Shown here: piece by piece, positions 216 through 43,024 of the stretch
How positions within the stretch are numbered: position 1 is the stretch's first letter
How the letters are laid out: each line of letters starts with the position of its first letter
Assembly: GCA_000004695.1 (NCBI GenBank)
Contig: CM000152.2
Location: forward strand, 5,664,001-5,728,000
DNA length: 64,000 nucleotides
Direction of reading: 5' to 3'
From: Dictyostelium discoideum
Taxonomy: Eukaryota
Position numbers and translations under genes: made by a program
Notes under the pieces: generated by a model
The model's database searches: none
Seen by the model: only the letters and a program-made list of their open reading frames with translations
What the model was told of the DNA's origin: nothing

Positions 216-1670
216 TTAAAGTCTTTTTTTAATAATGAAATTATTAATTGGTGGTTGATAAGCAATACCAAAAGAACCTATATCATTTAATGGTTCTAAA
301 GTTGGATTAATAAATTGATAACGATTTATTAAAGTTGCTAAAACTGTAAAAATTTCACAATCTGCCAATGATTTACCAACACAATCTCTAACACCAGTAC
401 CAAAATGAACTAAATTTGTTTGACCACCACCAAACATATTATTTGAACCAGTTTCAATGAATCTTTCAGGTATAAATGATTTTGACATTGGAAATGTTTT
501 TTCACATAAATGAGTAGAGAAAACATTTTGAATGATTTGAGTACCTTTAGCTATTTTATAACCTTCAATTTCAACATCTTCACTTGTAATATGTGGTAAA
601 CCTATTAAAATAACAGAATATAATCTATAAACTTCTTTCATAACTAATGAAAGATATGGTATTGATGAACGATATAAACTATGTCTAATTACAATTTCAT
701 CATGACCATCGTCACTTTTTTTAAGATTATTTTTAATTTCATTAAAAAGCTTTTCTTGACAATTTGAATTATTTACAAGAGCAATTAATGTAAAAATTGT
801 TGAATTTGAAGTTGAATCTACACCAGCTAAAAAAACATCAACACATGTACTAACAACACTAGTCCAACTAATTTTACCATTATGATATTCTTTTAATAAT
901 TTACCAATTATTGTTCCATCATCATCATCATCATCATCTTCATTTTGTTGTTGTTTCTGTTGTTTTTGTAGTTGTTTATTATTTTTATAATTTTCAATTA
1001 ATTTATTTAAATGATCACATAAAATTGGATAAAATTTAAAAAATTTGTTTTGTTTATAAAATGGTTTTAAAATTGGAATAAAGTCAGACATAATTGGATT
1101 ACCACCATAATGTAAAAATTCGATAATAACATCTACAATATCTTGATTACTTTTGTCTTGATATGAATTATTTATAGTACCAAATAGAAAACGTAATATT
1201 ATATTTAAGGAAAATAATTTAAAATACATATTTAATGAAAATGGTAAACCATCTTGACAATGTTTATCTAATTGTTTACAAAGATTTTCACATTCTAAAA
1301 CTATATGATTTTCCATTTTTTTTATTTTATTAGATGTGATTTCTGTTAAAATTAATTTTTTTAATGTTGAATGAATTTCATCATTTGATCCAATTAAATT
1401 TTTACATCCATTGGCCTCAAATCTACTCAAATGTTGAAATCTTGGTGCAAATATTTGAGAATTTTCAATAAATGCTTTTTTAAATATTGGATAGCCAGTG
1501 AAAACAACTGTTTCAATATTACCTAATCTTATTGAATAAATTACTCCATACTTTTCATACCATTTTTGAAATTGAATATGTGGATCCTTATTAATTTGAA
1601 GTAAATTTCCAAAAATTGGTAATCTAATTGGTCCTGGTATTTTTGAATTAATTTTACTAATTCTATTATT
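216..1670 (-). CDS. cytochrome P450 (main exon; start/membrane-anchor exon upstream not resolved)
   Basis: ORF 216..1430 continues in frame to ~1670 (KIKNNRISKINSKIPGPIRLPIFGNL proline hinge) where an in-frame stop implies an upstream spliced exon. Heme-binding loop FGTGVRDCVGK (FxxGxRxCxG) and a PERF-like FIPERF motif are present. Confidence 0.85.
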   Translation of the reverse strand, partial: NNRISKINSKIPGPIRLPIFGNLLQINKDPHIQFQKWYEKYGVIYSIRLGNIETVVFTGYPIFKKAFIENSQIFAPRFQHLSRFEANGCKNLIGSNDEIHSTLKKLILTEITSNKIKKMENHIVLECENLCKQLDKHCQDGLPFSLNMYFKLFSLNIILRFLFGTINNSYQDKSNQDIVDVIIEFLHYGGNPIMSDFIPILKPFYKQNKFFKFYPILCDHLNKLIENYKNNKQLQKQQKQQQNEDDDDDDDGTIIGKLLKEYHNGKISWTSVVSTCVDVFLAGVDSTSNSTIFTLIALVNNSNCQEKLFNEIKNNLKKSDDGHDEIVIRHSLYRSSIPYLSLVMKEVYRLYSVILIGLPHITSEDVEIEGYKIAKGTQIIQNVFSTHLCEKTFPMSKSFIPERFIETGSNNMFGGGQTNLVHFGTGVRDCVGKSLADCEIFTVLATLINRYQFINPTLEPLNDIGSFGIAYQPPINNFIIKKRL

Positions 1671-1961
1671 CTTTATTTTTTAAAATAATAATTAATAATA
1701 GTAATGATAGTAACAATAAATAATAATAAATAATATTTTTTTTTTTTTTTTTTTTTTTTAATATTGAATTTATTACATTTTTAAAAAAAATTATTAATGA
1801 TATTATTAATATTAAAATTGAAATATATAAATTCATTTTTTTTTTTTTTTTATTATATATTTAAATTCAATAAATAATATATGATTAATTTAAAAAAAAG
1901 AATTTATAGAAATGAACAAGAAAAAAAAATTAAATAAAAAATAAAAAAAAAAATAAATAAT

Positions 1962-1995
<34 letters not shown>

Positions 1996-2462
1996 TGGGG
2001 AGATAGAAGGGTTTATTTTATACATGATAACATTTATTACCTTAAATGGAATTATTTTTTAAAAATTTTAATTGGTAGTTTAATTTTTTTTTTTTTTTTT
2101 ATGTTAATGAATAATTATGAATTAAATAATTTTTAAATTTGTTTTTTTTAGATTTTTTTTTTTTTTTTTTATTATTTTTTTTATTTGAATGAAATGGCAT
2201 AAAAAAAAAAAAGTTATAAGACAATTTTCACTAAATTACTCTTCTTTAAAACATTTTTTTTTGTTTATTTAATTAATTTATTTTTAAAAAGTTATTTGAT
2301 TGAATATTAAATAACAATTAACTTGTTTGCGCCAAAATTTTTTTTTTTATTTTTTTAATTTTTGTTATCCTATTTTTAACTTTTATTTTTTTTTATTTTT
2401 TTTTTATTTTTATTTTTTTACTTTTTCTATTTTTTTTTAATTTTTTTTTTTTAACTCCCGCG

Positions 2463-2894
2463 ATGGAAAGAATTCTTTCCATTTCTTTAACACCTGCAAT
2501 GGAAAGAATTCTTTCACTTGAGCAAGAAGCTCAATTAATTCAATGGATTGAAGAAGAGATTGATCTAAACCAAACAGTCACAAAAGATCGTATTAAAAAA
2601 CGTGTTTGCACTATGTTCACTGAAAGAGTTGGCAAACCACGTGATTCTGTTAGTGATGACTGGTGGCTCAATTTTCGTAATCGACATCCAGAGATTAAAT
2701 TAAAGTTAGTGAAATTCCAAGACCTTAAACGTCCAGATGCCGCTAAAACTCTCGATAAAGCTGGTTTTTGGGAGCGTGCATGGGAAATTATAGAAAGAAA
2801 TCGTATTAAACCACAAAATGTGGTTAATATCGATGAAAAGGGTATATTATTTACAAAATCAAATTTCAAGGTAATATTTACATATAAATATTAA
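2463..2894 (+). mobile_element. pogo/Tc1-like DNA transposase fragment (CENP-B/Tc5-type HTH plus start of DDE domain)
   Basis: ORF encodes LSLEQEAQLIQWIEEE...DDWWLNFRNRHPEIKL (HTH_Tnp_Tc5-like) followed by NVVNIDEKGIL (start of the DDE_1 catalytic domain), then truncates. Confidence 0.55.
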
Positions 2895-2904
2895 AATTAA
2901 TTGC

Positions 2905-3070
2905 AACACCACCCGAATTGAGGGAACGACTAATAGCACTTCTTGAAATACCAAAGAGATTTGCAATTTCTTGTTGAGTGGAACTATTGTCTTTCTGTGT
3001 ATACATTTTCACAGCGGCTGTCAGATTTACTCCTGAAAGAATTGAACAAATGTCAAATTCTATTTAAAAA
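2905..3070 (-). mobile_element. transposase N-terminal HTH (psq/CENP-B-like) fragment, inverted relative to the adjacent fragment
   Basis: Minus-strand translation LSGVNLTAAVKMYTQKDNSSTQQEIANLFGISRSAISRSLN matches the N-terminal DNA-binding HTH of pogo-like transposases. Confidence 0.45.
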
Positions 3071-4013
3071 TAAAATGTTTTTTTTTATTTATTATTTGCA
3101 CAGTTGTAATATTATAAATATATTAAAATGAAAAAAAAATAAAAAATTTGCCATTTTAAGTTGTCCTTAGTTTGTCATTTATTGAAAAAAAAAATTAAAA
3201 AAAAAATTATTTAATCTGCAATCTATAAAAAATTTCAAAAAAACACAAACGTGCAAAACAGGGCGGGTGTAATTTTTTTTTTTCTCAACTATTGGAATTG
3301 CCATATCTCCTATATTCAGATTAACAAGAAATAAAAAAAATTTAAGTGTTGTTAAATAAATATTTTTTTTTTTTTTTTTTTTTTTAAAAAATTTGTTTGT
3401 TATTTAAAATTTTATTATCATCTTCATTAACATTGTTTTTAATTAATTAATCTGAAAACTATATGATTTAAGTTCGTAATATGCTATTTTTTTTTTTTTA
3501 AATCTTTTTCAAGTTTTTTATTATTTTTCTTTTCTTTTTTTTTTTTCTTTTTTTTTCTTATTTTTAAATTATTTTTTTTTTTTTTTTTTTTTTTTTAGAT
3601 ATTTGACTCTATTTTTATTATTGGTTAGAGAAAACAATTTAACATAAAATTTTTTAATTAATATTAATTTCAGATAAAAAAGAAAAAAAAAAAATGTTCA
3701 CAGAAGTTATTGTATTATTTATTTTTTTATTTTATTATTTTCATTATTAAAACTTTTTTTTTCTTGTTTATTTATTTTTTTATTATTTTTTTTCCAATTC
3801 TATTATTATAAAACTCCTTTTTATTATATTTTTGTGTACCTTAATAATAAATCACATACATTTACACAAACATACAATTTAATTAAAAAAATTGGTCAAA
3901 AAAAAAAAAAAAAAAATGATCACATTCATTCCATTTAACTATTTCCAAGAAAAAAAAGGAAAATTTTGTTTATTTATTTAGTTATTTTTTTATTTTTTTA
4001 TATAAATATAAAT

Positions 4014-5465
4014 TTATTTTCTTTTTTTAATAATAAAATAATTATCAGGTGATTGATTTGCTAAACCAATTATACCATTTTCATTTAATGGTTTTGAAAG
4101 AACAGGATTTAAAAATTGATATCTATTAATAAGTGTTCCTAATACTGTAAATAATTCACAATCAACAACATTTTTACCAATACAATCTCTACTACCTGCA
4201 CCAAATTGTACTAAATTTGTTGTACCACCACCAAACATAAAATTATTACCACTATCTGAAAATCTTTCAGGATTAAAATCATTTGGTGATTTAAAGAAAT
4301 CTTTTGATTTATGAGATAAGAAAATATTTTTAAATACTTGAGTACCTTTTGAAATTTTATAACCATTTATTTCCATATCTTGAGTTGTAATAATTGGTAA
4401 ACCTAATAAAGCAACTGGAAAATTTCTATAAGTTTCTTTCATTACCATTGAAAGATATGGTATTGATAAACGATATAAACTATGTTTTAAAATAATTAAA
4501 TCATCAATATTATTATTATTATTATTTTTTAATAATTCATTTTTAATTTCATTATAAAGTTTTTCTTGACAATTTGGATTATTAATTAATGCAATTAATG
4601 AAAAATTTAATGAATCTGAAACAGTATCAGTACCACCAACAGTTAAATCAACACAAGTACCAACTAAATTATCCCATGTTATTTTACCATTTTTAAATTC
4701 TTTAAATAATTTTAAAAATATTGTTATATTATTTTCATCATTATCATCATCATAATTATTTTCAATGAATTTTAATTTTAAATTATTTATAATATTTTCA
4801 ATTAAAATTATTAATTTTTTATAAATTTTTAAAAATTTATTTTGATTAATATTTTCAAAATATTTTACTAATGGTATAAAATCAGAAATTATTGGATCAC
4901 CAGCACCTTCAACTAATTCAAGTATTAAATTTATAATTTCAATTATTTTTTCATTATCATATTGATAATTTAAACCAAATAAAAATCTAAATATAATATT
5001 TAATGAAAATAATTTACCATAAAATTTAAATTTAAATGGTAAACCAGATTCACAATGGTTATCTAAATGTTTACATAGTTTTTCACATTCTAAAATTATA
5101 TAATTTTCTTGTTTTTTTAATTTTGTTAATGTCATTTCTGATAATATAATCTTTTTTAAATTTGAATGTGTTTCACCATTGGTAAATGTTAAATCTGAAC
5201 AATTATTAAATTGAATTTTACTACGATATTCATATCTTTTTTGAAAAACATTTGAATTATCAATAAATGATTTCTTTATAATTGGATAACCTGTTAAAAT
5301 TATTGTTTCAATATTACCCATTCTAATTCTATAAATTGGTCCATATTTTTTATACCATTTTTTAAAAACTTTATTTGGATTATTTTTTAATTGATGTAAA
5401 TTACCAATAATTGGTAAACCAATTGGTCCTGGTATTTTTGAATTAATTTTATTAATTCTATTTTT
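4014..5465 (-). CDS. cytochrome P450 paralog 2 (main exon)
   Basis: ORF 4014..5321 extends in frame to a (T)n-CAG acceptor at ~5466 (KNRINKINSKIPGPIGLPIIGNL). Heme loop FGAGSRDCIGKNVVDCE and PERF-like NPERF are present. A hydrophobic anchor-like segment (LILIIIIIILTLFIFEK) lies ~90 bp upstream but no in-frame ATG was found. Confidence 0.85.
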   Translation of the reverse strand, partial: KNRINKINSKIPGPIGLPIIGNLHQLKNNPNKVFKKWYKKYGPIYRIRMGNIETIILTGYPIIKKSFIDNSNVFQKRYEYRSKIQFNNCSDLTFTNGETHSNLKKIILSEMTLTKLKKQENYIILECEKLCKHLDNHCESGLPFKFKFYGKLFSLNIIFRFLFGLNYQYDNEKIIEIINLILELVEGAGDPIISDFIPLVKYFENINQNKFLKIYKKLIILIENIINNLKLKFIENNYDDDNDENNITIFLKLFKEFKNGKITWDNLVGTCVDLTVGGTDTVSDSLNFSLIALINNPNCQEKLYNEIKNELLKNNNNNNIDDLIILKHSLYRLSIPYLSMVMKETYRNFPVALLGLPIITTQDMEINGYKISKGTQVFKNIFLSHKSKDFFKSPNDFNPERFSDSGNNFMFGGGTTNLVQFGAGSRDCIGKNVVDCELFTVLGTLINRYQFLNPVLSKPLNENGIIGLANQSPDNYFIIKKRK

Positions 5466-5468
5466 CTG

Positions 5469-5512
<44 letters not shown>

Positions 5513-5659
5513 TTAAAAACTATAAAAATTTAAAAAAAAAAAAAAAAATTATTTTTTATTACTTTTTCAAATATAAATAAAGTTAAAATTATTATAATAA
5601 TAATTAAAATTAATTTCTTTTTTTTTTTTAAATTAATAACATAAAAAAATCAAAATTTT

Positions 5660-5694
<35 letters not shown>

Positions 5695-5713
5695 ATTTAT
5701 GAAAAAATTTAAC

Positions 5714-5744
<31 letters not shown>

Positions 5745-5799
5745 ATAATAAAATTAAATAAATTAAACCAATTTTTAATATTTTTATTTATTTTAACCC

Positions 5800-5833
<34 letters not shown>

Positions 5834-5990
5834 GTAAATCTATATCTAAAATTATAAATAAACCACTAACCTACTATTTAAATTAATTTTTTATTTATTT
5901 TCTTTTTTTAATTAAAAATTTAACATTTGGTGGATGAAGAATAAGACTTAATTTACCTTTATCATTTAAAGGTATTGAAGGTTTTGGATT

Positions 5991-6383
5991 TTAAAATTCA
6001 TATCTATTAATTAGAGTTGCTAATAATGTAAAAATTTCACTGGTTGCTAAAGATTTACCAATACAATCTCTATTTCCAAGACCAAATTGTACCATATTTG
6101 TATCACCACAACCATAAATAAATTTATTACCACTTTCAATATTTCTTTCAGGTATAAAATGATTTGGTAATTTAAAAAAATCTTCATGTCTATGTGATTG
6201 ATAAAAATTTTTAATAATTTGAGTACCTTTTTTAATTTTAAAACCATCAATTTCAATATCATTATCTATTAAAACTGGTAAACCTAATACACCAACAGGA
6301 TATAATCTATAAACTTCTTTCATAATCATTGAAGGGTAAGTAATTGATGAACTATAATTACTATTTTTAATAATTAATAAATC

Positions 6384-6426
<43 letters not shown>

Positions 6427-6465
6427 TTATTATTTTTATTATTATTATTATTATTTAGAGATTCT

Positions 6466-6560
<95 letters not shown>

Positions 6561-7251
6561 TAGAGATTCTTCATTATTATTATTATTATTAAAAGATTCC
6601 TCACTACTATTATTATTAATTAATGATTTTTGAATTTCATTATAAAGTTTTTCTTGACAACTTTGATTATTTGTTCATAGAATTAATGAAAATATAAGTG
6701 TATCACTACTTGTATCCGTACCACCAATACAAAGATCACAAATATATTATCCCAATTTAATAAACCATTATTAAATTCATCTAATAATTTCACAACTATT
6801 GATTGATTTTTATTTTTATCAATTATACCATTTTCAATTTGATTTTCCAAATAGTAAACAAAGAATTATATATAATGAAAAATGTTTTAAAAAATCATAA
6901 ATTGATATACCATCACCAAGATGTAGAATTGATTCATCATTTATTGTTTTATCAATATTATTACATAATTTTTCAACTTGTAATAAAATATAATTTTCAA
7001 TTATTTTAACTTTTGTTTAAGTTAATTCTGAATGAATTATTTTTCTTAATAATTTATATTGTTCACCATTACATATTAATAAATTTGAATTATTATTCAT
7101 TTTAATTTTACTTGAAAATTGATATCTATTTGAAAAAATTGTTGGATAATCTTTAATTGATCTTTTCATAATTGGATAACCAGTTAAAACTACAGTTTCA
7201 ATAGATCCAAGTTTAATTTTATAAATTGGACCAAATTTTTCATACCATAAC

Positions 7252-7260
<9 letters not shown>
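5991..7260 (-). pseudogene. cytochrome P450 paralog 3, decayed (in-frame stops, frameshifts, internal microsatellite)
   Basis: The C-terminal ORF 5991..6329 keeps FGLGNRDCIGKSLATSE. Upstream homologous segments carry in-frame TGA/TAA where paralogs have LIALINNPNCQEKL and SEMTLTKLK (here LIL*TNNQSCQEKL and SELT*TKVK), plus frame breaks and a ~200-bp (AAT)n block. Confidence 0.7.
6388..6592. repeat. (ATT)n/(AAT)n microsatellite inside P450 pseudogene
   Basis: Near-perfect trinucleotide array with two 'tagagattcttca' interruptions. Confidence 0.9.
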
Positions 7261-7298
<38 letters not shown>

Positions 7299-8054
7299 AA
7301 ATTGAATTACTTTTTTTTATTATATTTCAAAAAGTGGTCAATATCTATATTTGAATCTATACTTCAATAAATTAATATATTTATTATTTAAATAAAACAG
7401 TTTTAAAACCTCTTTTCCCAAACTATTGGTGGTTTTAAAAAAAAAAAAAAAAAAAAAATTAATTTTTTTTTTAATTTTATTTTCCCACTAAGACTTTTTT
7501 TTGAAAATAATAAATAATTAATAATTTGAGAGATAAAAATCTATTGATATAAGGGAATTATAGATTTTGATATAGGGTTTTATTTTTTTTTATTTTTTTT
7601 TTTTTTTTTTATTTTTTTTTTTTATATAAAATTAAATTATATATTTTTTAATATTAATGGTTTAGAATATCAAACCTATTTTAAGAGGCAAAGTAATTAT
7701 GAAATATATAATTTCATAATTACTCATCATGATATTTGCCAAACTCTTCCCAAATTTAATGTGATGGCAATATTGATCATAATAAATAAAGGAACATACA
7801 ATTAAAAAAAAAACATTAGTTTAATATTTTTTTAAACCAAATTGATAATCATAGTTTATCAACATTAAAGCAAGTAAACTATAATTAATAGTTTTATATA
7901 TGAATTTTAATGTATACAAACACACGAATGTTGCAAATCTTGAATCAAAATATATAAAACTAAAAAATTATTATTATAATTGTTGTTTGGTTATTTCTTT
8001 ATTTCTAAACATATACTCAATTAATAACTAATAAATTGTAGAAATAAAAGAAAA

Positions 8055-8200
8055 TTGTTGTAGGGAATTTTCAATAAAATTTCACTACAGTAGCGTAGTG
8101 AATTTTATTATTTAATTTCACTACAGTAGCGTAGTGAAAAAAAAAAATCACTGACCCTAAATTTTTTTTTTTTCAAAAAACAAATAAAGTTTATTAAATT
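8055..8200. repeat. left terminal inverted repeat
   Basis: Matches the reverse complement of 13035..13180 over ~145 bp with 1-2 mismatches. Confidence 0.85.
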
Positions 8201-8332
8201 ATTATCTTTTATTTGATTATTAGTTCTATATAAGTTTTTTTATTTTTTTTTTTTTTTATTTTATTTTTTTTTTTTTTTATTTTATTTTTTTTTTTTTTTT
8301 TGCGCCAAAACTTTTTTTTTTTTTCCCCAACA

Positions 8333-8367
<35 letters not shown>

Positions 8368-8586
8368 TTTCATTTTCCCAAAATGAAACAAGATAAAATA
8401 AATGAAATTATAAATTATTTAAAATTTATTGAAGATAATAATTTTGAAAATACTAAACATAAAAATTATAAATTTTTACATGATGAGTAAATATTTTTCC
8501 TTACAATAACACAATCATTTTTTAAATTCTGACCAATAAAAAACAGAAACAGAAAAGAAAAATTATTTAGAATTGAAAAAAAAGTC

Positions 8587-10703
8587 ATGAATTGTGGCGG
8601 AGATAGAAATATATCAAAAGAAGTGTGTTTAGAAGTAATTAATGATTATAGAATGGTATCACTCTGGGAAGAAATGCATAAAGGTCATATAGGAAGAGAT
8701 GCAACCTATGGGAACTACAAGACTAAATATTATAATATGGGATTGTATTCTTTTGTATCTGATGCAGTAGATACGTGTGACATTTGCCAACGAAATAGAA
8801 TAAAAGGTTTGGTATCAATCATTTTTATATGATGTTTTGTAACTTTTATATTAAAACTCTTTTAATAATTTAAATAAATTAATAGGTATAACAAAGGATT
8901 TTGCTCCAATTGTAGATACCGAGGAATACTCAAGATTGGTTTATGATTTAACATCAATTAAAGGTGAACATAAAGAAAAAGTTACATACGATGATGATAA
9001 TGAAAAGATACTAACTAAACTAGATGATCTTATCCAATATGACTCTGTACAACCGTACGACACCGATGTTGTTTACATTATTCTATGCATAGATTCTTTT
9101 ACAAAATTTGCTACTGGAAGGTATTTATTTTTTATTTATTAATTTATTAGTTTTCTTTTTTTATTTTAATTATCATTTATTTTTTAGATGTTTGACAACA
9201 AAGAGAACAGTTCCCATATACAATTTTTTGGCTCTCACGTACTTTGGCAAACCTGTGAAAGTATGGCACTGCGATAATGGACGTGAATTTAAAAACAAAG
9301 TCCAAAAAGAATTCCTAAAACTTTTTCCAGGCTCCAAGTCAGCACATGGAGCTCCTCGTACACCAACAACTCAAGGTATGGTAGAAAGATTGAATCGAAC
9401 TATCAAGGAGAGGATCTCAAAATTAAAACAACAAGAGTATGATATTGTGAACAATATAAATTATCGATATGTTTATTAATTAATCATTTATAAATAAATT
9501 TTAGTTTTCTTGATGGTACTTCTAGGTCTCTTTCTGAACTATTAAAACAAGCTTTGTATGATTACAATAATACAAAAACAAGAACAATTAAAATGACACC
9601 ATCTCAAGCTGTTGGTATTGTTCCTTTGTTTATTAATGTTCAATCAGAACAAGACTCTCAATCAATTGGTGTTTCAGATGTTTCAAAAGAAGAAAGAACA
9701 GCTATTATTCTTGAAAATCTCACAAGTTACCAAAATCAATGGAATTCAAAACCACCAAAGGGATTGAAAGTTGGTGATACTGTACTCTTTCTAGAAATTA
9801 AAAAAAATAATGTAAGTAATTAAAACATAAAGATTAATAATATATGAAACAGTAATAATTAACAAATTTTATATTTAATTCTAATAGAAAATATTGATTT
9901 TGTGTAAAATTCATAAGGTAATACAGGAAGACACTAAACAACTTTATAAACTTGAATTTTTGGAAGATGGAATCAATAGCCTTCAAAAAAAAGGTTTATA
10001 CTCTGGTTTTGTAGGAGGTAACAAGTTGGTTCTTTATAAACAATCAACAGTTGATATTTTTAGAACATCGCCAAACATACAAAAAGATATTGATTCTTTT
10101 ACTTCTGGTCTTTATTTAAATAATGATGGGAAAGTTATTGAATTTCTGGTTCAGTTTATTAAAAATCTTGGTAAGGATTTATCCAATTTCAACTTGCATC
10201 AATTGGTAACACAAAATGATCCATTTAGGGTTTTGGAAGATGCTCTTAACAATCCATCAAATATTCCACCTATCATTAACGATAATCCATTTCAACACAA
10301 ACTCAATAATGAAATGGAACAAGAAGAAATACTCCCATTTTTAAATAATAATCCAACAGCGCCAAATTTAATGAATTGTTTGAGAAAGGATATGAATTTA
10401 AAAGAAATAGTACCACCAATACCTCAAGTGCAAATAATACCATCGTATACTATACCACAATCTGGTAGTGGTATAGTAACAACTGTTAAACGTCTCAGAG
10501 GCCGTCCTCATAAGATACCAATTGTTAATAAACCTCCTTTAAAATCACATTCTAAACCATCCAAATCACCTCTCAAATCACCATCCATTTCACCTTCCAA
10601 TTCACCATTTAAATCACCATTTAAATCACCTTCCAAATCACCATTTAAATCACCTCACAGCAAAGAAAAATGCACCTTTAAAGCAAATTTAAAGAAAAGT
10701 TGA
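8587..10703 (+). CDS. integrase-type transposase (HHCC zinc finger, rve DDE core, SH3-like GDTVLF, AT-hook/SPKK tail), 5 exons
   Basis: Proposed join 8587..8806, 8886..9120, 9188..9436, 9505..9811, 9888..10703. Motifs: HKGH...CDIC (HHCC); LCIDSFT (first D); WHCDNGREF (second D); QGMVERLNRTIKE (E); GDTVLFLEIKK; RGRPHK AT-hook then (SPxK)n repeats. Exon phases are consistent. Confidence 0.75.
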
Positions 10704-11892
10704 TTTAAATTGGATTTAAATTGAATTTAAAGCCGCGTTTAAAAAATTCATTTTTAAGGTAATTTTTAAGGTAATTTTTAAGATATTTAAAAATGCCTTT
10801 AAAATTTGCTTTAAAATAAATTTTTAAGCAATTTTAAAGGTGATTTTAAAGGTGATTTTAAAGGTGATTTTTAAGGTAATTTTTAAGATAATTTTTAAGA
10901 TATTTAAAAATACCTTTAAAATTTATTTTAAATTAATTTTAAATAGGATTTAAAGTAGATTAAAAGTAGATTTAAAGTGAATTTAAATTTCCTTTAAACA
11001 TAAATTTAAGGTTTTTAATAAAAAAGATCTAATTTTAGCACAAAAAAATGGGGATAAAATATTCTATCATTTTTAAATTTTTCATCAAAGCAATCAAATG
11101 GTGTAATGGTTGATGAGACTACCCTTTGATAGAGGGTCGGGGGATCGAATCCCTTTTGGGTAATTTTTGAAAAATTAAAAAAAAATTTTAAAAAATTTAT
11201 CCGTTAAATAACGGATTCGAACTCAGGACCTCGCTTTTAAAGCCATTAAAAAGGTAATTTTAAAGGTAATTTTAAAGGTAATTTTTAAGGTGATTTTAAA
11301 GTAACCTTAAAAATTACCTTTAAAATTACCTTTAAAATTACCTTTTTAATGGCTTTAAAAGCGAGGTCCTGAGTTCGAATCCGTTATTTAACGGATAAAT
11401 TTTTTAAAATTTTTTTTTTAATTTTTCAAAAATTACCAAAAGGGATTCGATCCCCCGACCCTCTATCAAAGGGTAGTCTCTTCAACCATTACACCATTTG
11501 ATTGCTTTGATGAAAAATTAAAAATGATTGATTTTTTTTTCCCCATTTTTTTGTTCTAAAATTAGATCTTTTTTATTAAAAACCTTAAATTTATGTTTAA
11601 AGGAAATTTAAATTCACTTTAAATCTACTTTAAATCTACTTTAAATCCTATTTAAAATTAATTTAAAATAAATTTTAAAGGTATTTTTAAATATCTTAAA
11701 AATTATCTTAAAAATTACCTTAAAAATCACCTTTAAAATCACCTTTAAAATCACCTTTAAAATTGCTTAAAAATTTATTTTAAAGCAAATTTTAAAGGCA
11801 TTTTTAAATATCTTAAAAATTACCTTAAAAATTACCTTAAAAATGAATTTTTTAAACGCGGCTTTAAATTCAATTTAAATCCAATTTAAATC
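10702..11892. repeat. 1.19-kb near-perfect palindrome (about 590-bp arms, 12-nt central spacer)
   Basis: 10702..11290 is the reverse complement of 11303..11892 with a few mismatches. The arms contain tandem 12-13-mers (aaggtgatttt/aaggtaatttt), a tRNA-like anticodon arm (ACCCT-TTGATAG-AGGGT) plus a GATCGAATCCC T-loop-like motif, and a second GGATTCGAACTCAGGACCTCGC motif. Confidence 0.9.
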
Positions 11893-12484
11893 CTTAAGCA
11901 ATTAATTATTAAGCGATTAAGGTGTTTTCTTTGCTGTGTTCCAAATCACCATCCATTCACTTCCAATCACCATTAAATCCCTTCCAATTCACCTTTTAAA
12001 TCACCATTTAAATCACCTTCCAAATCACCATCAATAGGAAAAATCGTTAATGTGATCCTTCAAAAAAAGTTGCAAAAACAAAGTTAACAAGGACACAAAA
12101 ATTAGAACTTGATTTGGTTGCAATTAATAGAAGGGGGTATGGGGAAATTAGAAAATAAAAACAAGTGGCCAAATCAAAAAAACAAAAAAAACACAAATCA
12201 ACACAAAAAATTAAAAAAAAAAAAAAAAATTAAAAATTAAAAAAAAAAAAAAATTGAAAAAAATAAAAAAAAATTACATTTGTTAAAAAAAATAAAAAAA
12301 AATAAAAAAAAATAAAACTTAAAAAAAATTGAAAAAACAAAATAAAAAAAAAAAATTGAAAAAACAAAATAAAAAAAAATTTCAAAAAAAAAGAATGATC
12401 GAAGAATTAATAGATTCGATAAAACTCTTAAGAAATTTAGCCATTGAATATGGCAATGAAGAATAGTTAGATTCAGAGGAAAAT

Positions 12485-12793
12485 TTGACTAAATTCCTCG
12501 AAAAAGCAGCCAAAGTACTATATGTAAATAGTGGTGATGCTTTAATCGTTAAAAATCCAAATATGATGTTAGAAGCATTAGAATTAAAATCAAAACAATT
12601 TCACCAACATTGTGTAAAAACTGTAATAGAAAACGAATTATATTTGGACTTTTTTGTATACAAAGGAAAATGCAAAAACATCAAATGCACCAGAGGTAAC
12701 AAAGCTAGAAAAAATTCAATTGTGTGCAGTGTTTACAGTGATATGGTAAATCAAGCAATTGAACAACTCAGGGAGTTAATAAAAATAAATTAA
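12485..12793 (+). CDS. hypothetical small ORF inside transposon
   Basis: 102-aa ORF between the palindrome and the right TIR, preceded by a short ATG ORF (12400..12471). No recognizable domain. Confidence 0.3.
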   Translation: MTKFLEKAAKVLYVNSGDALIVKNPNMMLEALELKSKQFHQHCVKTVIENELYLDFFVYKGKCKNIKCTRGNKARKNSIVCSVYSDMVNQAIEQLRELIKIN

Positions 12794-12933
12794 TAAAAAT
12801 AAATTAAAAAAAAAAAAATTGAAAAAAAAAAAAAATTAACAATAATAATAAATAAAATAATAATTAAAACAAAAATAAAAATTACAATTTAATAAACAAA
12901 TAAAAATTGAAAAAAATTTAAAAAAAAAAATTG

Positions 12934-12973
<40 letters not shown>

Positions 12974-13034
12974 AACAATAATTATAATAAAAATAAATAA
13001 AATAATAATTAAAACAAAAAATAAAATTTCAATT

Positions 13035-13180
13035 TAATAAACTTTATTTGTTTTTTGAAAAAAAAAAAAATTTAAGGTCAGTGATTTTTTTTTTTCACTA
13101 CGCTACTGTAGTGAAATTAAATAATAAAATTCACTACGCTACTGTAGTGAAATTTTATGGAAAATTCCCTACAACAAAAT
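13035..13180. repeat. right terminal inverted repeat
   Basis: Reverse complement of 8055..8200. Confidence 0.85.
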
Positions 13181-13311
13181 AGTTAAGAACAATTAAAATA
13201 ATGATTTTTTTTAGTCTTGATTCAGCACATTGGTATTTTAATAGGTTTCTTTAAAAACGGAAAATAAAATTAAAAAAAAAATAAAAAAAAAATTAAGTGT
13301 GTTCCAGAAAG

Positions 13312-13347
<36 letters not shown>

Positions 13348-13614
13348 AAAAGGCAGAATTAAATTAATTTTTCAGCACTTTTATGGTGAAATTTTTACAT
13401 CCCCACCCCAAAAAAAATATAAAAACAATTTTTTTTTAGATTTCATACAAATAAAAACATTGCTATTTTTTGATTATTTTTTTTTTTTTTTTTTACCTAA
13501 AAGCGGTATATTGTTATATTTTATTACATTTTTAAATTTTTAGATTTTTAAATTTTTAAATTTTTATATTGTTATATGTTGATATTTTTGGTTATATTAT
13601 GATTACTACTACCT

Positions 13615-13615
<1 letters not shown>

Positions 13616-13651
<36 letters not shown>

Positions 13652-15900
13652 TATAATGGAATTGGGTTTGGAGTGTTCGGGTTATGCCATGATGTGTTGA
13701 AGTTGATTATTAATTGGTCTCTGTTATTTAATTTGTATATTGTTTCATTCCTTTCGATCTTCTTTATTAAAATGAATTTCTCTATTTTAATTAAGTTGGT
13801 TAGTTCTTTTTCAATTAATGTTGGATCAAATGAGGGTGGAGATTTAGATTCGTCTTGATTGAATAGTTTGTGACAAATTATTCTCCATAGTTGATGTATA
13901 ATTATGCCGATTAAATTTGGGTAGATTCTTTCTTTTTTATTTGTTTTGCTAATATCTAGTGAATTGAGATCCCAATTTCTGATCTTGAAGAATGAGAGAT
14001 TGTTGAATGTTGAAATTATTATGTTTTCTATTTCTTTTACTTGCATACAGTCTATAAAAAGGTGAGTGTATGGGTCACGGATTATATTGTTACAGATTTT
14101 GCATGGTACGTTACGTTCATAGTTGATTCCAGGAAGTGACCTTGAGAAAAATCTGAATAGTGTATTTCTACCTTTTTGATGTGATATGTGGTTGATATGT
14201 TGGAAGATGGATGGTATGTTGATGTTATTTATTGAAATTAGATTTTTTTGTCCATCTGTTTTTCTTATTGATTTGTATTTGTGAGTGATTAACATGTTAT
14301 AGATTTCTTTAAGTTGAAGTGGCTTTTTGTTTTGACCTTTGATACAATCAGGTAGTGATTTTAGTTTATTGTGTTGTGGTGCAAAGTTGTTTCTAAAATC
14401 TTTCCATCTGTCTACCATCTCTCTTAATCCAATTGATATATATTTGCTGTTGCTGATTTGTTCCATATACCATTCTTGTAGTATGTTGCATGCTTTTATC
14501 TTGATAATGTGTAATAATCTATTCATGTTCCAAACTTTGAATGCTATTTGTCTGATACCTAAGTCCCACATCTTAATTCCACCTTCTTTCCAATCACCGT
14601 ATGCTCTATCCATTGTCATTAATGTTCTATATTTATGTTCTTCTGTGTATGTATTTTTAATTGCGGAGAAGAGGAACCATTTAATGATATTGTTTAGTTC
14701 AGTAATGTGTGATTCATTTAGTGAGTCTAGATATTGATGGTAGGATAATCTCGATAGCGCATATGTTTTGACAATTGTCATCTTTGCTCTTATTGTAGTT
14801 GCTTGACTTTTCCAATTGTTTAAGCTATCTTTGATTGAGTTGATGATTGATGTGATTTTTGAATTGAGGCCCACTTTCGTGAAATTGAGACCCAAGTATC
14901 TTTCTGGAGCTTCACTAATCTTAAATGGGAGGTTTGGTGGTATATTACCAATGCATATCATAACAGTTTTCTCTTGATTAAGTTTTGAAGATGTACCTAG
15001 ACAGTAGTTGTTGATTTTATCCAATACTAATTTTAATTCTTCTGCTGAGTTGTTGAAAGTTGACATATCATCTGCGAATGCTGTTAGCTTGATTCTTTTC
15101 TGGTCTGATAATTTAAATCCTTTAATTTCGTTTTCTTTAAGTATATCAATTAGTAGTGCTTCCATTACAAGTGCAAATATTGTTGGTGATAATGGATCTC
15201 CTTGTTTTGTGCCTCTGTTAACTGTAATGTGTCCCACCAGGAAGTCATTTATCTTGATCTTATTCGTTGTTTCTTTTAATAGATTCATTATTAATTCTAC
15301 TATCGTTTTTGGTATGCCAATGTGGCTCAATGTTCTTCTGATACTTTTGTGGCTAATTGAGTCGAAAGCTTTGTTGAAATCGAAGAATGTGATTAACGTA
15401 GTACTGTTTCTTGATTTGTTTGCTCTTTCGATTACCTCCTTCATTATTTGAATATTATCTTGGATGTAACGATTTGGAACAAACCCATTTTGAAATTTGT
15501 TTATTATTTTCTTTGTAACTGCAAGTAAACGGTTGTTGATGATCTTACTTAATAGTTTGTAGTCCGTATTGAGTAGAGTAATTGGTCTTCTATTAGCTAT
15601 TTGTAGTTCATCTCCTTTCTTGAATAGTGTTGTGATAAATCCTTCTTTGAATTTTGGATTGATTTCTTTTTGATTAGTTAATGTATCATTAAATACTTTT
15701 GCTAAGATTGTTGAAAGTGATGCAGAGTGGTTTCTATATAATGCAGCATTGATTCCATCTAGTCCTGGAGATTTGTGTGGATTAGAATTTTTAATTGCAT
15801 TATTGACTTCTTTTGGTGTGATTGCACTATCTAATGATAGTCTGGAAATGTATTGTTTGTCCACTATCCATTTATCCAATAGTTCCCTATTTTTTGATTA
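13616..15900 (-). mobile_element. 5'-truncated non-LTR (LINE-like, TRE-type) retrotransposon
   Basis: RT ORF with a poly(A) tail (plus-strand T34 at 13616..13649). The 5' junction lies ~55 bp from the 3' end of the tRNA-Ser-like gene at 15957..16052 in the same orientation. Confidence 0.8.
13651..15879 (-). CDS. reverse transcriptase ORF2 (endonuclease domain missing), C-terminal CCHC-like zinc knuckle
   Basis: Motifs RRPITLLNTDYKLLSKIINNRL, FFDFNKAFDSISH, FADDMSTF (YxDD box), C-terminal CKICNN...HLFIDC. Confidence 0.85.
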
Positions 15901-15956
15901 TTGATTTAGTTAAACTGAACATATAAACAATGTAATGCATCAAAACACAAAAGATT

Positions 15957-16052
15957 CGACGCCTGCAGGATTTGAACCTGCGCCCCCGAAGGGATTGAAT
16001 TACTCTTTTATATGATTCGAGTCCAACTCATTAACCACTCTGACAAAGCGTC
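15957..16052 (-). tRNA. tRNA-Ser(CGA)-like gene with a 15-nt intron
   Basis: Acceptor GACGCTT/AGGCGTC (one G-U); D-loop GAGTGGTTAA; anticodon stem TTGGA/TTCAA with loop CTCGAA(A), anticodon CGA; intron TCATATAAAAGAGTA after position 37; long variable arm CCCTTCGGGGG; T-arm GCAGG-TTCAAAT-CCTGC. Confidence 0.55.
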
Positions 16053-16139
16053 ACAATTTTTAGATGATTTTATCTGCATTTCTCAATTGAAATTAGAGAG
16101 GATAATGTTCATAGTAAACTGAATAAATTTATTCAAATT

Positions 16140-16178
<39 letters not shown>

Positions 16179-16514
16179 TTTAACTGTTTTAATTCTATTT
16201 AAATTATATATTACCTTTTTTGATAATTAAATAAGAATTTTTTAAATTAATTTTTTTTTTATATTTTAAATATTTTGTAAATTTTTTGGATGTTTGTGAT
16301 TTTTGTATATTTTATACTTTCATTTTGGGTGGGTTCAGTTCCTTAATTCGAAGGATCAAAATAAACAAAATCATCTCTAGGAACCTCAAAAAGTTCAATG
16401 GAACACATCATATAAAACAATACTCTTCCTAAAAAAATGAAATTTGAAAGATTACAATGGAATTATGACTATTTAAATACTTTTTTTATTATTATTATTA
16501 TTTTTTTATTATTT

Positions 16515-16811
16515 TCATTTTAATATTTTCAATTTTTTTTCAAAGAATTCTTGATATGTTTCAGATGGAAATGAACCGGCAGAGAGCTTATCTAAACACT
16601 TCATCATGTAATTGAAAACAAGAGGGTTCCAGTCTTGTTGGCCCTTGGAAATTATTTGTTTATTTGATACATCAGTAGAGTTGAAACCTAAGCACACCAA
16701 TTCAATATTATTTTTAGTATAGCCTTTCTTGTTGTGGATCCTATTTACAGATAATTTGAAAACTCTATTATTTTCTCCAATATCACCGAGCTGATAGTGA
16801 ATTTGGCTCAT
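16515..16811 (-). CDS. hypothetical ORF (possible 3' exon of Cys-rich gene)
   Basis: 98-aa ORF; overlaps in another frame the end of a CxxC-containing exon (~16829..16960). The VCLGFN motif is weakly reminiscent of HNH/EndoVII-type nucleases. Confidence 0.3.
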   Translation of the reverse strand: MSQIHYQLGDIGENNRVFKLSVNRIHNKKGYTKNNIELVCLGFNSTDVSNKQIISKGQQDWNPLVFNYMMKCLDKLSAGSFPSETYQEFFEKKLKILK

Positions 16812-17073
16812 CTGGTCTTCTTACAAATTTGGCCTTGGTAATGGCACATCTATCATCATTATTATCACATAGTTTTTCTAATGTTTCTCTTGTTAAACTA
16901 AATTTTCCATATTTTCCATTTTTTTATATGTTGATGGGATCTTTTGTTTGCATTATTTGAAATGTTACGCATAAAATAAGTGTTACCTCCTTTTGACCTG
17001 AATTATTAAAAAAAAAAAAAAAAAAAAAAAATTAAAAACTATAATAAGAATATGCGAAATAATAATAAAAAAC

Positions 17074-17436
17074 TTACAAACACATTTTACATGTCAATAC
17101 ATTTTCTCTTTCATAATTCCATAATGGTTTATCTTGTAAACAACCTATACATTTTTTAAAAATATTAACATCACAATTCTTTAAAAGATCTTTGAAATTA
17201 TCCGATCTTTTAAAGGGAACTATTAATTCATCTTCACTTGAAATGTGTTTCAATTTAAGAAATGAATCTCTTGGATATTTAAAACAATGTTGAGTTATTC
17301 TATGATTAACATCAATATCATTATGATACAAAATACAATGGCCAATATAATTTACAGTAAAAATGTTACAACCAATACAATAACCATTTACTATTTCTGA
17401 ATTTTTTTTTCTTTTTTCAATTCTTCTTCCTCTCAA
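17074..17436 (-). CDS. hypothetical Cys-rich (multiple CxxC) protein exon
   Basis: 120-aa ORF with GYCIGC...GHC and CIGC...CKMC pairs, plus downstream KLCDNNDDRCAITKAKF in an adjacent exon. Confidence 0.35.
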   Translation of the reverse strand: MRGRRIEKRKKNSEIVNGYCIGCNIFTVNYIGHCILYHNDIDVNHRITQHCFKYPRDSFLKLKHISSEDELIVPFKRSDNFKDLLKNCDVNIFKKCIGCLQDKPLWNYERENVLTCKMCL

Positions 17437-17621
17437 CCATTATTTTTATACATCTAACACAGGTTTCAAAAATTCAACTATAAAATGATGACGGTGAACG
17501 AAGTCTATTACAAAATTTACATATTATAAAACTTTTAAAACTTTTATAAATTGAAAGAAAAAAAAAAAAAAAAGATTAATAATTTTTATAAAATATAATA
17601 CTTCATTGATTAATTTTATAA

Positions 17622-18185
<564 letters not shown>

Positions 18186-18253
18186 TATAATAATAATAAA
18201 ATAGAAATAATATAATGGGAACCTAAGATTGAATGTGGAAATCAAAAAAGGAT

Positions 18254-18306
<53 letters not shown>

Positions 18307-18673
18307 TAATTTTTTATTTTTTTTTTTTTACAATTCAATAGAATAATTTAATCGTATATAATACTTATCTCTCTTACATCATATAAATATAGGTTTGTTA
18401 AAATTATAATTTTTTTAAGAATTAATGTATCTTTTTATATTGTAAAATATTAATGAGGTTTACTCTTATTTCAATCATATTAGTTTCATTTTATTTATTG
18501 TCGAAAAGTTATTTAGGCCAAGGCTAGTGAAAAGCTGTATTCAGTGGGCAGAAACTGGACTCACCATATAGATGCAGGCAGTGACTCTTCAGTGAATCGG
18601 AGCAGGTTACCTGAGTGGCAGTCCCTTAATACAAATTAGTTTACTATGAACATTATCCTCACTAATTTCAATT

Positions 18674-18776
18674 TTTTTTTTTGACGCAATTATTAATTGC
18701 TTCTCCCTGAGATGCTAGATCTCATTTTATTTGTAGTTTTTTACAGGGTCTCTAAAAGAGGGGTTAGTTTACTTTT

Positions 18777-18816
<40 letters not shown>

Positions 18817-18846
18817 TATATTTTCTTTAAAAAGTTCTCACTAATT
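18674..18846 (-). mobile_element. retroelement 3'-end fragment (TRE5-like C-module plus oligo(A)) flanked by a 16-bp target-site duplication
   Basis: Insert is bounded by the direct repeat ctcactaatttcaatt (18658..18673 and 18847..18862). Its core (18683..18775) matches the reverse complement of 46078..46165. Has T9 and T47 runs (A-runs on the minus strand). Confidence 0.5.
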
Positions 18847-18894
18847 TCAATTGACAAATGCAGATAAAATCATCTGAAATTTGTGACGCTTTGT

Positions 18895-18977
18895 CAGAGT
18901 GGTTATTGAGTTGGACTCGAAGCATATAAAAGAGTAATTCAATCCCTTCGGGGGCGCAGGTTCAAATTAAGTAGTAA
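18895..18977 (+). pseudogene. truncated tRNA-Ser(CGA)-like pseudogene
   Basis: Near-identical to the minus-strand gene at 15957..16052 (D-arm A to T, loop T to G changes) but ends after the T-loop, lacking the 3' T-stem/acceptor. It shares the ~60-bp conserved 5' flank. Confidence 0.5.
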
Positions 18978-19059
18978 TGGATAATTAATTACACAACAAC
19001 AGAAGATATTGCCAAGTTTTATAAAACTAGATTTTGTTGGTTCAATATATTTTAATATC

Positions 19060-19090
<31 letters not shown>

Positions 19091-19181
19091 ATTATTAAAA
19101 AAAAAAAAATTTAATCAATATAATTAATGTAATGTAATTAGAAATAATATTAATAATTAATTTATTTATTTATTTATTAAT

Positions 19182-19212
<31 letters not shown>

Positions 19213-19945
19213 TATTTATTTTTGTTTATAGTTTTTTTAATTTTGTATGGCCCCAAAATTTTTGAGACTAAACAAATCCATAACGAAAATTTAAAACTGG
19301 GCTTTGTCCATATTTCCCCGCCCATCTGTTTTTATTTTTTTTTTTTTTGTTTTAAAACCATCATAATTACAAAAATAATAACAATAAAATAAAAATAAAT
19401 TAATTCATTTTATAAGTAGCGACAAAAAAAAAAAATAGGTTAAAAAATTATTAATTGATTTGATCTGAAAAAAAAGTAAATATAAAAAAAAAATAAAAAT
19501 TTAAAAAATAAAATTAAATATTTGATACCCAAATACTACACCAAACCAAACTAAATAAAAATAAAAAAAACAAATATATAAAAAAAAAAAAAAAAAAAAT
19601 ATAAGAATTAAAAAAAAAGTTGGGTTTTGGTATCGAAAATTTTTAAAAATAACAAAAGAATAACATCAAAAACTCACTATATATAGAATGTTTTTTTATT
19701 GTTTATTTATTTCTTATTTATTAGAATAAAAAAAAAAACAATAATATAAAAAAAAATAATATAAAAAAAAAAATAAAAAAAAAATAAAAATAAATTAAAA
19801 CAAAAAGAATTCGATATTATTTAAAATTTTTTTTTTTTTTTTTTTTTTCTTTTTTAAATTAATAATTTTATTATTTTATTATATTATTTTTATACTATTA
19901 ATTTATATTAATAACTATAAAGAACTATTTAAATAATAATATATT

Positions 19946-42516: not shown

Positions 42517-42587
42517 TGCGTATGCCGGGAATCGAACCCGGTTCAACTGCTTGGAAGGCAGCTATCATACCACTAGACCACATACGC
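42517..42587 (-). tRNA. tRNA-Gly(UCC), copy 1
   Basis: GCGTATGTGGTCTAGTGGTATGATAGCTGCCTTCCAAGCAGTTGAACCGGGTTCGATTCCCGGCATACGCA. Cloverleaf with anticodon loop CTTCCAA, T-arm CCGGGTTCGATTCCCGG, acceptor GCGTATG/CATACGC. Near-identical to metazoan tRNA-Gly-UCC. Confidence 0.9.
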
Positions 42588-42953: not shown

Positions 42954-43024
42954 TGCGTATGCCGGGAATCGAACCCGGTTCAACTGCTTGGAAGGCAGCT
43001 ATCATACCACTAGACCACATACGC
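42954..43024 (-). tRNA. tRNA-Gly(UCC), copy 2 (tandem duplicate)
   Basis: Identical 71-nt sequence within the second unit of the tandem duplication. Confidence 0.9.

Follow-up and report, generated by a model that had tools for sequence, protein, structure and literature searches.

The DNA analyzed here is a stretch of 64,000 nucleotides of Dictyostelium discoideum (NCBI GenBank assembly GCA_000004695.1, contig CM000152.2, positions 5,664,001 to 5,728,000 of the forward strand), referred to as the window; positions are those of the window unless a comparison locus, denoted by an L number, is named. Sequence comparison identifies the element at 8056-13176 as one copy of the known cut-and-paste transposon Tdd-4, of the Ginger2/Tdd group. 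The last coding exon of its transposase gene is cut by an insertion, which is an unrelated nested transposon, and the long palindrome as which this insertion is represented in the window is most likely an assembly chimera. Taken as a whole, this reading, comprising Tdd-4, the nested transposon, the truncated product and the chimeric palindrome, is considered highly probable.

The element, with its 5′-TG...CA-3′ tips, spans 5,121 bp, and taking out the block at 10656-11938 (1,283 bp) leaves 3,838 bp, which agrees with a preliminary description of the stretch, made from its letters, in which the excess over 3.8 kb had been attributed to an internal palindromic block. The insert-free element aligned end to end, with 99.0-99.3% identity, to the three uninterrupted 3.8-kb copies used for comparison, found at L004 7681-11501, L005 7686-11500 and L006 7677-11507. 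When the window was compared with another D. discoideum copy (L001), the alignment ran to 10655 and resumed at 11939. The published TDD-4 is 3,839 bp long, generates a 5-bp target site duplication (TSD) and is classified in the Ginger2/Tdd group (Bao, Kapitonov & Jurka 2010, PMC2836005, Table 2). In this way, the Tdd-4-type integrase-encoding DNA transposon of the preliminary description was confirmed by nucleotide identities of ~99%, and the related undescribed family that it had offered as another option gave way to Tdd-4 proper, whose annotated protein, DDB_G0282355, is the one encoded in the window. The window itself is strongly AT-rich (21% G+C), and its encoded proteins match D. discoideum proteins at 100%.

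The element is bounded by terminal inverted repeats (TIRs) of 145 and 146 bp, in which the following features were located:

8056-8200, forward strand: left TIR, 145 bp, from the TIR alignment
8081-8102, forward strand: first copy of the 22-mer TTCACTACAGTAGCGTAGTGAA, candidate transposase-binding site
8117-8138, forward strand: second copy of the 22-mer, candidate transposase-binding site
13031-13176, reverse strand: right TIR, 146 bp, one T more than the left
13094-13115, reverse strand: third copy of the 22-mer, in the right TIR, candidate transposase-binding site
13130-13151, reverse strand: fourth copy of the 22-mer, in the right TIR, candidate transposase-binding site

The alignment of the two TIRs showed 2 mismatches and 1 indel, in keeping with the near-identical 145-bp repeats first described. 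The two substitutions, at position 18 (A/C; 8073 vs 13159) and at position 103 (C/T; 8158 vs 13073), recurred unchanged in every Tdd-4 copy examined, at the same positions in L001, L004 and L006. Since they are identical in all copies, these left/right differences are family features, reflecting a consistent asymmetry of the ends and not random decay. The 22-mer TTCACTACAGTAGCGTAGTGAA occurred exactly four times, twice in each TIR in mirrored orientation (none in 100 shuffles), starting 26 and 62 nt in from each element tip, and at 7 loci every Tdd-4 end had it at these same offsets. TIRs carrying these 22-mers were present in every copy examined, as expected from the preliminary description. 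Its count of two 22-mers per TIR stood, while their palindromic nature proved partial, with 8-nt arms enclosing 6 central nt that are not palindromic and self-complementarity at 18 of the 22 positions; as single-stranded DNA, each copy was computed to fold into a small hairpin. A Tdd-4 end fragment at L008 4257-4350 harbored the 22-mer three times in tandem, with a 36-bp spacing, versus the usual two.

The transposase gene, for which five exons had been counted, contains six exons and five GT-AG introns, and its spliced product has 656 amino acids (aa). Its segments are:

8383-8486, forward strand: exon 1 of the spliced product that equals DDB_G0282355 / XP_640275.1 at 100%
8547-8806, forward strand: exon 2, with the HHCC zinc-binding motif; Pfam Integrase_H2C2 at residues 76-119
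8886-9120, forward strand: exon 3, region of the first catalytic Asp
9188-9436, forward strand: exon 4, WHCDNG ... GMVERLN, with the second Asp and the Glu of the DDE triad
9505-9811, forward strand: exon 5, from the splice model
9888-10703, forward strand: exon 6, whose native part (9888-10655) stops within the SPXX repeats at residue 640
10656-10703, forward strand: foreign end of exon 6, 16 codons and a stop contributed by the nested element (HSKEKCTFKANLKKS*)
11939-12158, forward strand: displaced remainder of exon 6, encoding the other SPXX repeats and a basic tail (...INRRGYGEIRK*)
12395-12793, forward strand: downstream Tdd-4 open reading frame (ORF) region (MIEELIDS...), interrupted in frame by a TAG at 12464-12466 common to other copies

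Over all 656 residues, the product shows 100% identity both to the AX4 protein DDB_G0282355 / XP_640275.1, so that the gene is already annotated, and to KAM9950558.1, from a newer assembly. The HHCC/DDE integrase type that had been read from the letters was supported by profile searches, in which Integrase_H2C2 scored above its Pfam cut-off (E=1e-7) and rve and rve_3 just below theirs, and by a PDB sequence search, in which the catalytic cores of the Rous sarcoma virus (RSV), prototype foamy virus (PFV) and human immunodeficiency virus (HIV) integrases matched with E about 1e-5. Moreover, residues H79, H82, C112, C115, D229 and E266 were invariant. As for the putative SH3-like domain of the preliminary description, the segment after the DDE core matched no Pfam family, SH3-type ones included, and the AlphaFold model of the Tdd-4 protein (mean predicted local distance difference test score, pLDDT, 36) placed beta strands at residues 375-437 with low confidence.

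Knowledge of Tdd-4 and its integrase-like transposase dates back to 1999, when Wells reportedly described the element with about 15 tandem C-terminal SPXX repeats. The uninterrupted copies encode a protein of 715 aa (P0017) with about 16 SPXX units. Up to residue 640, midway in the SPXX run, the window protein equals P0017; from residue 641 on it diverges, ending in 16 foreign residues. The remainder of exon 6 (11939-12158) is frameshifted by single-base deletions as far as 12057. Thus, contrary to the preliminary description, the copy is not intact: the insertion cuts the last coding exon, keeping 640 of the 715 native residues, and the reading frame, which was to be compared with those of other copies, proved truncated relative to P0017. 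Because the nested element sits in the SPXX coding region, the copy encodes only a C-terminally truncated protein, DDB_G0282355. Since half of its SPXX repeats are missing, together with the basic tail, this copy is unlikely to be autonomous.

Downstream of the transposase gene, the TAG at 12464-12466 divides the second ORF into MIEELIDS...GNEE* and LDSEENL..., and both L003 and DDB_G0292352, an AX4 gene model, have the same TAG. Since it is shared with both, this stop is a feature of the Tdd-4 family. The downstream ORF was predicted as a separate gene of 110-114 aa in L004-L006, and a small intron may bypass the stop.

The inserted block, a CACAGC...GCTGTG transposon here designated M, is composed of the following segments:

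10656-11938, forward strand: nested insertion M, a pseudo-palindrome of 1,283 bp with CACAGC...GCTGTG ends
10656-11345, forward strand: left arm, M positions 1-691, subfamily 2, like the L003 copy
11254-11341, no strand assigned: M hairpin, 38-bp perfect stem with a 12-nt loop, the centre of the palindrome falling at 11297/11298
11346-11892, reverse strand: additional M segment in inverted orientation (M about 600 to 47), with subfamily-1 variants and private T-to-A changes; not in L003, probably chimeric
11893-11938, forward strand: M right end, with many single-base deletions

The breakpoints of the insertion fall exactly on the M termini. L001 contains four discrete M units of 758-760 bp (5108-5867, 7299-8056, 9108-9867 and 10978-11736) with the termini CACAGCAAAGAAAAA...TTTTTCTTTGCTGTG, three of which sit elsewhere in that Tdd-4 copy. 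Further copies were located in L003 (10274-11032), L005 and L008, and the element also occurs at sites outside Tdd-4. A 2-bp TSD of variable sequence (TA, AA, GA, CT, AC, GC or AT) flanks 11 of the 11 M monomers in the compared loci. Since M has its own termini, TSD and independent sites, the 1,283-bp excess is the nested insertion of an unrelated transposon, of the 759-bp non-autonomous monomer type, and not as Tdd-4 cargo. The termini of the family read CACAGCAA(A/T)GAA...GCTGTG. An autonomous relative with the same ends was found at L009 4218-9251 (5,034 bp, flanked by a TG duplication), with coding capacity for a protein of 814 aa and an ORF of 275 aa. The 814-aa protein belongs to a multi-copy family restricted to Dictyostelium, with two subfamilies ~45-50% identical; it had no match in Pfam or PDB searches, and its AlphaFold model reached a pLDDT of 37.

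This evidence bears directly on the proposal that the element is a Tdd-4 derivative, or a member of an undescribed family, of which a palindromic passenger forms an integral part. A length of 5.1 kb against 3.8 kb and the internal position of the block would be accounted for by such a proposal, but the backbone is ~99% identical to ordinary Tdd-4 copies without the block, and the block destroys the reading frame. Furthermore, it possesses its own ends and 2-bp TSD and recurs independently, both outside Tdd-4 and, within another Tdd-4 copy, at three different positions. An integral passenger is thus barely credible.

Several observations concern the M sequence itself. A weak tRNA-like relic lies at M positions 437-507 (11092-11162, mirrored at ~11433-11503); ARAGORN called it only at a relaxed threshold, the tRNA-like strings in the insert were not called at default settings, and Rfam found no tRNA in the insert. 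Two B-box-like motifs, GGATCGAATCC and GAGTTCGAATCC, lie on opposite strands of M. Dictyostelium TRE retrotransposons are known to target tRNA genes. The only Rfam matches of the insert hairpins were to mir-548 and mir-968 and fell below threshold, with 42.8 bits against a gathering threshold of 90; membership in these families was rejected, and the hairpins were regarded as generic AT-rich ones. The 12-bp repeats of M, GGTGATTTTAAA, show similarity to the SPXX coding repeats of Tdd-4, TCACCATTTAAA, when the latter are reverse-complemented (repeat family D5; 10533-10668 compared with 10750-10950 and 11640-11850). A homology-driven insertion of M into the SPXX repeats was considered and rejected, given its discrete ends and 2-bp TSD at 11 unrelated sites. 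Gene models of the newer assemblies read through M at L001 6001-9022 (P0001), L008 8001-11307 (P0004) and L003 10666-11896, with the M-encoded parts DLAFKAIKKVILKVILKVIFKVIL inside P0001 and MGIKYSIIFKFFIKAIKW as the N-terminus of P0004; the read-through models P0001 and P0004 are annotation artefacts.

The palindromic form of the insertion was evaluated against the same locus in an independent Nanopore and Illumina assembly (L003; GCA_054883475.1, chromosome CM142509.1), which belongs to an assembly set, including strain AX2-214, described in bioRxiv 10.1101/2025.08.01.668227. Window positions 338-11339 correspond to L003 1-10957 with 5 substitutions, positions 11767-19259 align to L003 10864-18321, and all substitutions between the two are non-coding. 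L003 presented the same flanks, the same Tdd-4 and the same insertion site, and its insert consists of a single M monomer of 759 bp (10274-11032), flanked by a clean CT TSD and followed by an undamaged downstream frame, giving a Tdd-4 of 4,590 bp. The palindrome, which had been taken as a feature of the locus, was therefore absent from the orthologous locus in L003.

The point at which the two assemblies part company is the M hairpin, which has a 38-bp perfect stem with a computed folding free energy (dG) of -35.6 kcal/mol (z = -11). Window positions 10576-11345, which include the left arm, matched L003 10200-10979 at 762 of 763 positions, through the hairpin. After it, the window sequence reverses, running through M from about 600 to 47 in inverted orientation (11346-11892). 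Three diagnostic sites divide the M monomers into two subfamilies; the left arm and the L003 monomer belong to subfamily 2, and the right arm showed the subfamily-1 state at 3 of 3 sites together with private clustered T-to-A changes. Since it carries the variants of the other subfamily at all three sites, the right arm was not copied from the left, and a simple fold-back duplication of the resident monomer, either biological or as a snap-back artefact, was rejected on this ground. In addition, none of the 12 other M copies is a dimer.

The right arm adjoins ~14 single-base deletions at 11916-12057, most of which remove one base from a short run. They affect the right end of M and the next 120 bp, and the CT duplication has lost its C to one of them. 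Over the 19 kb compared, there are 15 positions at which the window has fewer bases than L003; every one lies in 11916-12239, and 13 of the 15 in 11916-11980. Outside 11916-12239, the shorter homopolymers belong to L003. This deletion cluster is indicative of low-quality sequence adjacent to the right arm.

These results suggest that the 1,283-bp palindrome is most likely an assembly chimera. The reads of another M copy would have been joined in reverse orientation via the self-complementary 38-bp hairpin, and the low-quality stretch would bridge the chimeric join to the true right flank. The true structure would then be a 4.6-kb Tdd-4 containing a single M monomer.

One alternative is that the palindrome is real in the strain of the window, where a break or a stalled fork at the hairpin, arising once this lineage had separated from that of L003, would have been repaired by a template switch to another M copy. 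The result would be an inverted duplication with 0.6-kb arms within the Tdd-4 gene, producing a long hairpin RNA if transcribed. The pivot does fall exactly on the 38-bp perfect hairpin, a substrate of the kind known for palindrome formation, an ectopic template would account for the subfamily-1 variants of the right arm, and the window and L003 are different assemblies. However, several events would be needed in a lineage separated from L003 by 5 substitutions in 11 kb, the 14 deletions and the T-to-A clusters resemble base-calling errors rather than repair scars, and no other M copy is dimeric. A real palindrome is accordingly judged unlikely. In its most specific version, a very recent, hairpin-pivoted inverted duplication from a second M copy inside a transcribed transposase gene, it is decidedly a long shot. 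If true, read-through transcripts would form a hairpin RNA with a ~600-bp stem, which could feed RNA interference (RNAi) and silence the M family, constituting a natural analogue of maize Mu killer.

It could also be argued that both strains carry the palindrome and that the long-read assembly of L003 collapsed it to a monomer, given that some assemblers and polishers can have difficulty with perfect palindromes. However, the L003 monomer is canonical throughout (98.8% identical to L001 7299-8056) and flanked by a perfect CT TSD, and its downstream SPXX region is in frame and identical to that of the uninterrupted copies. The 70-bp right end and the TSD, degraded in the window, would not be repaired by a collapse, and the two window arms belong to different subfamilies. 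This explanation is highly improbable.

Turning back to the preferred reading, in which a Tdd-4 copy with a single nested M is misrepresented as a palindrome, some points weigh against it. First, the 5-bp flanks of the window copy are imperfect (AAAAT vs AAATA). The flanks, which the preliminary description had proposed to search for a 5-bp TSD, thus gave a divided answer, with perfect duplications around the copies in L001 (TCATC), L004 (CATAT) and L006 (ATGAC) and none at L005. Second, the name Tdd-4 rests on the published length and TSD (PMC2836005) and on the AX4 annotation. Third, the chimera is deduced from the comparison of assemblies, in which the window is probably the Sanger AX4 reference, as judged from gene identity and homopolymer behaviour. 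Finally, the stock behind L003 differs, being probably AX2-214, and a strain-specific rearrangement is conceivable.

As to the genomic context, two cytochrome P450 genes lie upstream of Tdd-4, both on the reverse strand (219-1430 and 4017-5321). A 742-aa reverse-transcriptase ORF of a retrotransposon (13654-15879, reverse strand) begins 475 bp downstream of Tdd-4. Two tRNA-Gly(UCC) genes, 437 bp apart, are located at 42517-42587 and 42954-43024, also on the reverse strand.

By analogy with integrase-type DDE transposases and the Ginger2/Tdd group, the Tdd-4 transposase, with its HHCC and DDE motifs and SPXX tail, would bind the paired 22-mers within the 145-bp TIRs, cleave at the CA-3′ ends and join these to target DNA over a 5-bp stagger. 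With both TIRs intact, the window copy could at best be moved in trans by uninterrupted copies. The Ginger2/Tdd placement dates from 2010, and the biological weight of an element already known and annotated is small. The value of the present analysis lies rather in annotation: DDB_G0282355 corresponds to a transposase truncated by a nested transposon, and ~0.5 kb of the window (11346-11892), along with the error-rich stretch that follows, is probably not in the genome.

Among known systems, M is presumably DDT-S, the short form of a family whose autonomous members are DDT-A and DDT-B; thug would be the alternative name. A literature search on thug and DDT returned only passing mentions. Like the M family, the DDT family is multi-copy and restricted to Dictyostelium, has two protein subfamilies plus a short non-autonomous form, encodes a transposase without known relatives and co-localises with Tdd elements. 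In the literature, the proteins of Dictyostelium DNA transposons are said to be unlike any known transposase (PMC5633606), and DDT and Tdd elements to co-localise (PMC2665215). The 2-bp TSD and CAC... ends of M also recall, by analogy, the CACTA/Mirage/Chapaev group.

The retroviral and long terminal repeat (LTR)-retrotransposon integrases share with the Tdd-4 protein the HHCC zinc domain and the RNase-H-like DDE core. Unlike them, the Tdd-4 enzyme is encoded in a TIR-bounded DNA transposon without reverse transcriptase, and its C-terminal part is a tail of SPXX repeats.

With Tdd-4 itself, the window element has in common the 3.84-kb backbone, the 145-bp TIRs with TG...CA tips, the 5-bp TSD (in sister copies), the multi-intron gene for an HHCC and DDE integrase-like transposase with a C-terminal SPXX run, and a protein identical to the AX4-annotated Tdd-4-type gene. 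It differs in the nested block of 1.28 kb (0.76 kb in the sister assembly), in the truncated protein and in the imperfect 5-bp flanks of its own copy. Tdd-5 (AF298206, Glockner 2001, as cited in Bao 2010, PMC2836005) belongs to the same superfamily as the window element. A Tdd-5-like element (L004 13463-16370; L008 7200-7608) has in common with Tdd-4 its terminal 16 nt, TGTTGTAGGGAATTTT, and a ...AGTGAATTTT motif at the site of the first Tdd-4 22-mer, but with a different core, a pattern that fits a common cleavage site combined with element-specific binding sites. Protein identity is only 44-46%, with 44% for the Tdd-5-like protein P0004, and the comparison clearly places the window element in the Tdd-4 lineage and not with Tdd-5.

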